This document shows, piece after piece, positions 4,958 through 5,330 of a stretch of DNA of 64,000 nt (positions are counted from its first letter, which is position 1; each line of letters starts with the position of its first letter). The notes under the pieces were generated by a model. It worked only from the letters and a program-made list of their open reading frames with translations, had not been told where the DNA came from and made no database searches. The position numbers and the translations under genes are program-made. This stretch comes from an uncultured Candidatus Saccharibacteria bacterium (GTDB taxonomy: Bacteria; Patescibacteriota; JAUYIX01; CAYMIK01). Location of the stretch: positions 6,543 to 70,542 of the forward strand of contig CAYMIK010000003.1 in NCBI GenBank assembly GCA_964390745.1, given 5' to 3'.

Positions 4958-5330
4958 AAAAAAAGGGGCCCCGTTGTTTTGTCATCGCGACGTGCGAAGG
5001 CAAGGCATCGGGGCCCGGTAATACCGCGGACGTTGGCGGGTGGGACGACGAGTCGTCGTCTGGGGGATCAGCCGCTAAGGAAGCGCCGGTCCGGCCCGGG
5101 CTTGGGGCCGTCCTCCGGGGGGAGAGGGGCGCAGGTGTTCGTGACTTCGCTTTGCCTAAATGGCGGGCTCACGATCCACGAGTGCTGTTTCCCGGAAGGA
5201 CCATTCTGAATCCCCGGGAAGCCCGGAGTTCGAGCGTTGGAACTCGGAGGCGCCGGCATCACGAAGATGTCGTTGAATCCTTCTCCGTGTCCTCGTAGTG
5301 GCCAGAAGCGATCGGTTGTCATCGGTGTCT
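4958..5330 (-). ncRNA. GC-rich (~65%), highly structured noncoding island. Candidate structured RNA of unknown class; minus-strand orientation is suggested by a GGGGCCCC + U7 terminator-like 3' end.
   Basis: Sharp GC shift versus flanks. Many perfect hairpins (GACGACG-ACU-CGUCGUC; GGGGCCCCG...CGGGGCCC). No RBS-bearing ORF. Canonical RNase P (GGAAAGUCC, GGUAAAC), tmRNA (T-loop/CCA, tag frame) and SRP (GGAA domain IV) signatures were not found. Confidence 0.3.

Follow-up and report, generated by a model that had tools for sequence, protein, structure and literature searches.

Location and layout of the G+C-rich island

Within a 64-kb stretch of contig CAYMIK010000003.1 from an uncultured Candidatus Saccharibacteria bacterium, in the following called the window and underlying all coordinates unless a relative is named, we analyzed a G+C-rich intergenic island of 373 nt (4958-5330) located between the start of the signal peptidase gene lepB and the promoter of a tRNA-Arg gene. 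The island revealed a G+C content of 62.7% (G 135, C 99, A 64, T 75), reaching a peak of 73% in a 150-nt sub-window. No other segment of this length in the 64 kb is as G+C-rich, the mean being 46.2% (standard deviation 3.6%). On its flanks, lepB has 41.9% and the spacer to the tRNA 41.6% G+C. The GC-rich patch in front of lepB is real, and both the jump to about 65% over approximately 370 bp and the flanking tRNA-Arg described in an earlier initial annotation of this DNA were confirmed, the latter as a tRNA-Arg(TCG) with an adjacent promoter (Table 1).

On the minus strand, which is also the strand of lepB, we identified an ordered set of expression signals in and next to the island. A sigma-70 promoter was predicted back to back with the tRNA-Arg promoter and about 420 nt upstream of a hairpin of the form GGGGCCCC-U7, and the promoter scan found four promoter-like sites in the region versus 0.7 expected. 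We infer that the island transcript starts near 5381. The inverted repeat at 5371-5411 resembles an operator site and may have a regulatory role. Downstream, a Shine-Dalgarno-like sequence opens an open reading frame (ORF) of 84 codons, so that the statement of the initial annotation that no ORF with a ribosome binding site occupies this stretch did not hold. The ORF combines a start codon and a ribosome binding site with a length beyond chance expectation, closed ORFs of at least 80 codons preceded by a Shine-Dalgarno sequence arising with P = 0.042 when the window island was shuffled 3000 times at the dinucleotide level.

Behind the ORF, the island carries two stems. Both of those named in the initial annotation exist, namely GACGACGA/TCGTCGTC (5044-5060) and GGGCCCCG...CGGGGCCC (4966-5016), the latter with 23-nt arms that are 78% complementary, but the described abundance of stems and hairpin density were not found, both stems being located within the last 110 nt or so. 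The GGGGCCCC-U7 end that had been reported for the minus strand was recovered, consisting of the outer stem, the seven U residues, and then the TGATATAAT -10 element of lepB. A G+C-rich stem-loop is here directly followed by a U tract, as in rho-independent terminators. Because the outer stem surrounds 35 nt that contain a further irregular hairpin, the element is atypical, and a simple terminator scan missed it, its loop exceeding 8 nt. Based on this layout, the island appears in silico to form a transcription unit of its own in tandem with lepB, comprising promoter, Shine-Dalgarno sequence, ORF, hairpin, and a terminator by which it would be insulated from lepB. Of the stable structured RNA in tandem with lepB that had been proposed initially, the separate transcript on the lepB strand is retained as an in silico prediction, and the structured housekeeping or large regulatory RNA is not.

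Table 1. Features of the island, of lepB, and of the flanking region. Positions refer to the window unless a relative is named.
Feature	Position	Strand	Details
tRNA-Arg(TCG)	5480-5556		promoter TTGATC-17-TATAAT at 5430-5458; Rfam, ARAGORN, promoter scan
Predicted sigma-70 promoter of the island unit	5388..5416	-	-35 TTGACA 5416-5411, 17-nt spacer, -10 TACGAT 5393-5388; 10/12 matches
11-nt inverted repeat AATTGCCGATT / AACCGGCAATT	5411-5401 + 5381-5371		91% complementary; brackets -10 box and putative start site
Hairpin in the 5' untranslated region, CCGAGG-N13-CCUCGG	5346..5370	-	read from sequence; in minimum-energy fold
Shine-Dalgarno-like AGGAG	5329..5333	-	6 nt before ATG at 5322
84-codon ORF, ATG to TGA	5068..5322	-	MTTDRFWPLRGHGEGFNDIFVMPAPPSSNARTPGFPGIQNGPSGKQHSWIVSPPFRQSEVTNTCAPLPPEDGPKPGPDRRFLSG; TGA at 5070-5068
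Perfect 8-bp hairpin GACGACGA-C-UCGUCGUC	5044..5060	-	begins 7 nt past the ORF stop codon
Intrinsic-terminator-like element	4958..5016	-	8-bp G+C outer stem (5016-5009 with 4973-4966), U7 at 4964-4958
lepB extended -10 TGATATAAT and start	4936..4953	-	-10 at 4953-4945, 6 nt, ATG 4938-4936
Conserved non-coding unit of about 365 nt	3598-3972, promoter about 3975-4003	-	directly downstream of lepB, same strand
Conserved non-coding unit in relatives	L061:10938-11297; L065:1312-1668; L066:1195-1545	- (L066)	alignment

The slot between tRNA-Arg and lepB in related contigs

Three related contigs were compared with the window, namely L061 (JGI 3300045330), L065 (Logan SRR14234026), and L066 (Logan SRR11567540). 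A search of 5.8 billion proteins revealed only two relatives of LepB, and the 321-aa product of a neighbouring gene used as query yielded one more contig. Scanning the GTDB genomes with LepB returned only relatives of at most 33% identity, and nothing was found in JGI metagenomes with a LepB profile and a pattern for the non-coding RNA (ncRNA) described below. A literature search for similar G+C-rich intergenic units in Patescibacteria or for the sample accessions of the relatives revealed nothing relevant.

Contig L061, the nearest of the syntenic relatives, is collinear with the window from tRNA-His to the DUF3352 gene, with a PNPase that is 94% identical, and lacks the island, the promoter element of tRNA-Arg being followed by the -10 of lepB about 20 nt further on. 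Apart from its tRNAs, L061 shows no G+C-rich patches. At the same site and in the same orientation, L065 and L066 harbor islands of 63-68% G+C in genomes of about 43-47% G+C. Both revealed the same order of elements, i.e., a promoter, GGAG 6-7 nt before the start codon, an ORF of 83 or 87 codons, TGA, a G+C-rich hairpin, and the leaderless lepB promoter. The island promoters (TTGAAA-18-TATAGT in L065; TTGACA-18-TATAGT, 11/12 matches, in L066) have the same position as in the window and are likewise placed back to back with the tRNA-Arg promoter.

The unit of the window shares with these two the slot between the tRNA-Arg and leaderless lepB promoters, the strand, GGAG with a start codon, the ORF length (84 versus 83/87 codons), the TGA, a proline content of 16-19%, and a G+C-rich hairpin directly before the -10 of lepB. 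In contrast, the island body of the window showed no similarity in any frame to the islands of L065 and L066, its ORF lacks the conserved N-terminal AIPDP and C-terminal RxRxRAxGYFRA of their ORFs, and the hairpin of L065 has no U tract. The C-termini, DRRFLSG* in the window and DRARGYFRA* in L065/L066, may resemble one another. LepB of the window is 58% identical to that of L065 and thereby closer to it than L065 is to L066, yet the island content is unrelated. Since the same design occurs at the same site without sequence similarity, slot and promoter are shared, while the content differs.

Identities around lepB turned out to be mosaic. Between the window and L061, PNPase and S15 are 94% and 95% identical and LepB only 43%; between the window and L066, the 321-aa neighbour is 75% and LepB 45% identical; and between L065 and L066, the ncRNA reaches 91% and the proteins 46-49%. 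This pattern points to recombination in the surroundings of lepB or to strongly unequal rates there. In addition, L061 (9715-9930) and L065 (48-200) contain 160-220 nt between tRNA-Arg and a promoter-like ATTATAG...AAGATCAAG, with common blocks such as TCCTGATTTTT. The tRNA-Arg of the window starts 21 nt after its -10, so that this stretch is missing there.

The ORFs of L065 and L066 are related to each other at the protein level (BLASTP E = 2e-17, 44% amino acid identity). Between these two contigs, LepB and the protein encoded by the 3' neighbour reach similar identities of 46% and 49%, respectively. In a local BLOSUM62 alignment, the ORF frame scored 170 versus 81-106 for the five other in-register frame pairs, and net indels between both ORFs preserve the frame. 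A closed ORF of at least 80 codons with a Shine-Dalgarno sequence was obtained by chance in 3.5% and 2.1% of dinucleotide shuffles of the L065 and L066 islands, respectively. A profile of both ORFs gave no match in a search against the PDB.

A predicted gene cassette and its alternatives

Based on these comparisons, we regard the island, with a probability of roughly one half, as a small self-contained and lineage-specific gene cassette on the lepB strand that would encode an orphan small protein, undergo fast turnover, and insulate lepB by its terminator. In this scheme, the sigma-70-type promoter (5416-5388) would start a transcript of about 420 nt, in which, after a leader of 59 nt, AGGAG would direct translation of the 84-codon ORF into a Pro- and Gly-rich (18% and 12%, respectively) and probably disordered orphan protein. 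Transcription would end at the long G+C hairpin with its U7, where read-through would be stopped at a distance of 4 nt from the extended -10 element of lepB. As the lepB mRNA is predicted to be leaderless, the gene would need its own start site, and on a transcript reading through from the island its AUG would be internal and lack a Shine-Dalgarno sequence. The slot between the two promoters would be fixed and its content turned over by lineage, being empty in L061 and filled by another ORF in L065/L066. Transcription, translation, termination, insulation, and protein function are predictions here, made from what can be seen in the sequence, i.e., composition, ORF, Shine-Dalgarno sequence, stems, and presence or absence among the relatives.

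Some of the compositional data are consistent with a translated ORF. In a position-specific composition model, its frame was the best sense frame by 5-10 log units, with the antisense frames -0 and -1 scoring equally, and the ORF frame was likewise the best sense frame in all three islands. CC dinucleotides were distributed over the codon positions of the window ORF as 15/8/8, showing that Pro codons are enriched in frame, as they are over the islands of the window, L065, and L066 together (43/27/21). Like the small ORFan proteins of other bacteria, the putative product is short, homologue-free, of low complexity, and predicted to be disordered, and its occurrence varies among close relatives. 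As a rule, bacterial ORFans have a higher A+T content than the genome around them. In contrast, the window ORF exceeds its genome by about 16 points in G+C content, and in L065/L066 the richness persists at synonymous sites.

Several results weigh against the cassette. No homologue of the window ORF was found among 5.8 billion proteins in a word-indexed search, no true homologue among 1.84 billion representatives with full phmmer, and no match in Pfam, PHROG, or NCBIfam, and its comparison with the L065/L066 ORFs by hhalign gave a probability of 0.2% and hence no link. Its exact sequence was also absent from a protein collection that holds LepB and the 450-aa neighbour of the same contig. AlphaFold2 predicted neither a fold nor secondary structure (predicted template modelling score 0.13), a result that carries no information when only one orphan sequence is available. 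At such a G+C content, long ORFs arise easily, two other frames of the island containing just one stop. Moreover, the G+C content of the window ORF is high at all three codon positions (0.60/0.59/0.69), so that it lacks the signature of its clearly coding GC-rich neighbours (0.61/0.43/0.64 for ORF450 and 0.51/0.46/0.75 for ORF113). In the L065/L066 pair, selection on the protein is weak, the ratio of nonsynonymous to synonymous divergence (dN/dS) is about 0.76 with differences spread evenly over the codon positions (38/33/40), synonymous sites of the ORF are less diverged than those of lepB (pS 0.52 versus 0.73), and an 18-nt block ending in the stop codon as well as a 19-nt block just past it are perfectly conserved. 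Taken together, dN/dS, low pS, and the conserved block behind the stop indicate constraint at the nucleotide level. Our reading, at a probability of about one half, is that the slot contains a small ORF that is translated and under some additional constraint of this kind.

The only phmmer match to the window ORF (E = 5e-14) was rejected as a repeat artefact, its score being summed over 16 weak stretches and dropping to 24 bits in a one-to-one BLASTP. The matched protein (P0004, 1037 aa) is built from a 58-aa unit (174-nt period) that recurs about 17 times with near-perfect identity, and looks as if tandem-repeat or rolling-circle DNA or RNA had been translated.

Many of these points would also fit a non-coding RNA, i.e., a minus-strand transcript of about 420 nt acting as RNA, such as a lineage-specific small RNA (sRNA) or a G+C-clamped stable RNA, in which the ORF would be a by-product of the high G+C content. 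The G+C richness extending to third codon positions, the lack of protein homologues and of a predicted fold, and the substitution pattern and the blocks conserved across and beyond the stop codon in L065/L066 all favor it, as does the 3' hairpin, which is kept at the same position in L065/L066 with 10 pairs, 5 of them compensatory, and a column-shuffle z-score of -8.1, computed from two sequences only. When folding energies were compared with dinucleotide shuffles, the whole island gave z = -2.4 for the strand of lepB and -3.1 for the opposite one; whole-island values of -2.4 to -4.0 would speak for an RNA. The signal is concentrated in the 3' 121 nt of the unit, where both perfect stems are located (-44.2 kcal/mol, z = -3.9). 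The 5' untranslated region and ORF body (314 nt), on the other hand, are no more structured than shuffles (z = -1.65; 4/100 shuffles fold as well), and in L065/L066, where the ORF body reached a column-shuffle z of -1.95, conserved structure is convincing for the terminal hairpin only. Against a non-coding RNA also stand the frame-specific amino acid similarity of L065/L066, the recurrence of Shine-Dalgarno sequence, start codon, and ORF of at least 80 codons in all three islands at a chance of 2-4% each, the missing sequence conservation between the window and L065/L066, and the missing island in L061. We consider this explanation possible but doubtful.

A match to a known RNA family was not obtained either. 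Searching the whole window with Rfam 15 at gathering score revealed five tRNAs only, none of them in the island. With permissive filters and E<=10, the region 4800-5600 gave no credible match in the island, the best being Streptomyces Scr3202 with 19 bits (gathering score 52) and E = 4, i.e., at chance level. ARAGORN detected no tmRNA over 1-12000, and the islands of L065 and L066 had no Rfam match. Accordingly, the RNase P RNA or large regulatory RNA that the initial annotation had guessed from the size found no support, and the families it had named for comparison (RNase P, tmRNA, 6S, and SRP RNA) were all searched for and are not represented in the island. RNase P RNA (RF00010, RF00011) was rejected because no covariance model matched at E<=10 and because the island, unlike what is expected of an essential gene present in a single copy, is absent at the L061 site and unalignable with L065/L066; tmRNA (RF00023) because neither ARAGORN nor Rfam matched and tRNA-like ends and a tag ORF are missing; and 6S RNA (RF00013), the RNA of the signal recognition particle (SRP; RF00169/RF01854), riboswitches, and T-box leaders because no curated covariance model matched. 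With the housekeeping RNAs, the island shares only a size of about 370-420 nt and an elevated G+C content. Since a housekeeping RNA would be conserved, and the island is absent in L061 and replaced in L065/L066, such a role is not supported, and the island is neither RNase P RNA nor any other known or conserved structural RNA. High G+C content and two perfect stems are insufficient to call a structured RNA.

A further parallel is offered by dual-function sRNAs that encode a small protein as well, such as SgrS/SgrT, RNAIII/hld, and SR1/SR1P. As in these, a short ORF and a structured 3' part would be combined in one transcript some hundred nucleotides long that has a promoter and a terminator of its own, and the relatives L065 and L066 show signs of constraint at both the nucleotide and the protein level. 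In contrast to them, the island has no known target, conserved seed region, or family match.

The island might also be inert foreign DNA, left over beside the tRNA gene from a mobile element or from G+C-rich DNA that was acquired horizontally, in which the expression signals are fortuitous or disused. The absence of the island from L061 fits this explanation, as do at least five further G+C-rich patches lacking in L061 (two tRNA-like genes, ORF450, 8349-8690, ORF113, and 15963-16138) and a large serine recombinase gene at 476-2143. The island is moreover a singleton that resembles nothing searched, no second copy being found in the window or in the loci of the relatives. However, no terminal or flanking repeats and no target-site duplication were found around it, no second copy of the tRNA-Arg 3' end as an att-type repeat was detected near it, a distant blastn search against phages and plasmids gave chance-level matches only, and viral contigs gave no match. 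A mobile element or an integration beside the tRNA was rejected on these grounds. Promoter, Shine-Dalgarno sequence, ORF, and terminator are, in addition, placed as in the constrained unit of L065/L066, and the terminator abuts the lepB promoter precisely. Inert DNA therefore seems unlikely.

Finally, the position directly upstream of lepB on the same strand could point to a cis-regulatory leader, in which the terminator, and thereby read-through into lepB, is under the control of a translated leader ORF or of a structure that senses a ligand (attenuation, as by leader peptides, riboswitches, or secretion-monitor peptides). The end of the terminator is 20 nt away from the lepB ATG, and the stop of the ORF precedes a hairpin by 7 nt. 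In the window and in L066, ORF and lepB share the same frame, and the C-terminal ...GYFRA-stop is conserved at the nucleotide level in L065/L066. In L065, however, the ORF is out of frame with lepB and the hairpin has no U tract, and no riboswitch or T-box leader was matched. The lepB promoter itself also fits such a leader poorly. In the window, lepB is predicted to be leaderless because the last T of the -10 is only 7 nt away from the A of the ATG. The extended -10 was also identified in L061 (TGATATAAT-N6-ATG, about 9988-10003), L065 (TGGTACAAT-N7-ATG, about 653-671), and L066 (TGTTACAAT-N7-ATG, about 2150-2168). An extended -10 (TGnTAnAAT) 6-7 nt before the ATG, with no Shine-Dalgarno sequence, was accordingly present in all four genomes, including the island-free L061, which implies a conserved, putatively leaderless signal-peptidase mRNA. 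A fusion of the ORF to lepB by recoding of TGA was rejected as well, since TGA behaves as an ordinary stop, ending 6/40 long ORFs, and long ORFs are intact under translation table 11.

The leader would have precedents in SecM-secA, MifM-yidC2, and VemP-secDF2, where likewise a Pro-rich small ORF immediately precedes a gene for protein export in the same orientation. These systems and L065/L066 have in common a C-terminal motif beside the stop codon that is strongly conserved; in the window, the motif is not conserved. Differently from them, a terminator and a leaderless promoter part the ORF from lepB, and no hairpin sequesters a Shine-Dalgarno sequence, which lepB lacks. SecM, MifM, and VemP carry an N-terminal signal or membrane segment. 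Such a segment is missing here, the N-terminus of the window ORF, MTTDRFWPLRGHGEG, not being hydrophobic, and a secretion-monitor arrest peptide was rejected for this reason and for the lack of a co-transcription layout. On balance, we regard a leader controlling lepB as very improbable.

If the reading as a lineage-specific gene cassette is true, the island represents one more unannotated small gene in a poorly sampled bacterium, which would aid annotation, and illustrates how cassettes replace one another at an intergenic slot that stays in place; the understanding of any system would remain unchanged. A mild surprise is an orphan unit that lies about 16-20 points above its genome in G+C content. 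The L065/L066 unit stays G+C-rich at synonymous sites though those of its neighbours are saturated, which hints at selection on the nucleic acid itself. It is conceivable, but in our view rather improbable, that the slot represents a new kind of element instead of an ordinary orphan gene, i.e., a replaceable unit that is G+C-clamped by nucleotide-level selection at all codon positions even across saturating divergence and combines a translated ORF with an RNA or DNA element, for example for tuning or insulating signal peptidase expression.

An RNA candidate downstream of lepB and further features of the window

On the other side of lepB, a conserved non-coding unit was identified that can be aligned in all four genomes (Table 1). 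It displays a TTGACA-17-TATATT promoter and a terminator consisting of a hairpin with a T-run. The unit is 91% identical between L065 and L066, which share 71% with L061 and about 54% with the window, compared with 43-58% for the flanking proteins. RNAalifold predicted 75 pairs for the four genomes, 18 of them with compensatory changes (column-shuffle z = -4.8), and Rfam gave no match at E<=10. A conserved RNA in tandem with lepB hence seems to be located on this side of the gene (3972-3598), as a better structured-RNA candidate than the island.

Adjacent to it, a G+C-rich patch (3338-3605) contains two odd tRNA-like genes on the minus strand (3384-3545) that are absent from the spacers of L061 and L066 and that ARAGORN does not name. 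The first (3545-3474) reached 31 bits with the tRNA model and has a 6-bp stem with a UUCG tetraloop replacing the anticodon loop; the second (3458-3384) reached 52 bits and has an 8-nt anticodon loop, ACUUGUAG.

Further G+C-rich patches were identified on both strands. Just past tRNA-Arg, ORF450 (5760-7112, plus strand) encodes 450 aa, including hydrophobic segments and a stretch rich in Arg and Glu. L061 lacks this ORF and has a pilin-like gene abutting the tRNA instead. ORF450 revealed no Pfam or PHROG family and no phage or plasmid match. A second G+C-rich intergenic unit (8256-8760, plus strand) harbors a TTGACA-16-TATTAT promoter (11/12 matches), a hairpin GGAAGCGCGGCTTCC, GGAGG, and an ORF of about 82-93 codons that is rich in Arg. 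The unit ends just before the promoter of the next gene (8702-8730). Its sequence is unrelated to the island, and in L061 the unit is absent, the flanking genes being only 3 nt apart. A third unit (12150-12540, minus strand), located between a xerC-like gene (11183-12112) and rpsO, comprises a 113-codon ORF (ORF113, 12195-12536; third-position G+C 0.75) followed by a perfect hairpin GGGGGGCGCCGC/GCGACGCCCCCC at 12160-12186; at this site, L061 has an unrelated gene for a 272-aa protein. The spacer of 187 nt that separates pnp from the DUF3352 gene is filled by a long G+C-rich inverted repeat (15963-16138), whose 38-nt arms are 71% complementary and enclose a perfect 10-bp hairpin; in L061, this spacer measures 14 nt.

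At the other end of the region, a large serine recombinase with Resolvase, Recombinase, and Zn-ribbon domains is encoded at 476-2143, the end of its gene being located within tRNA-His (2114-2190, minus strand) or adjacent to it. Beside its own tRNA-His, L061 has an M24 peptidase gene instead. The recombinase may mark the edge of an integrated element.

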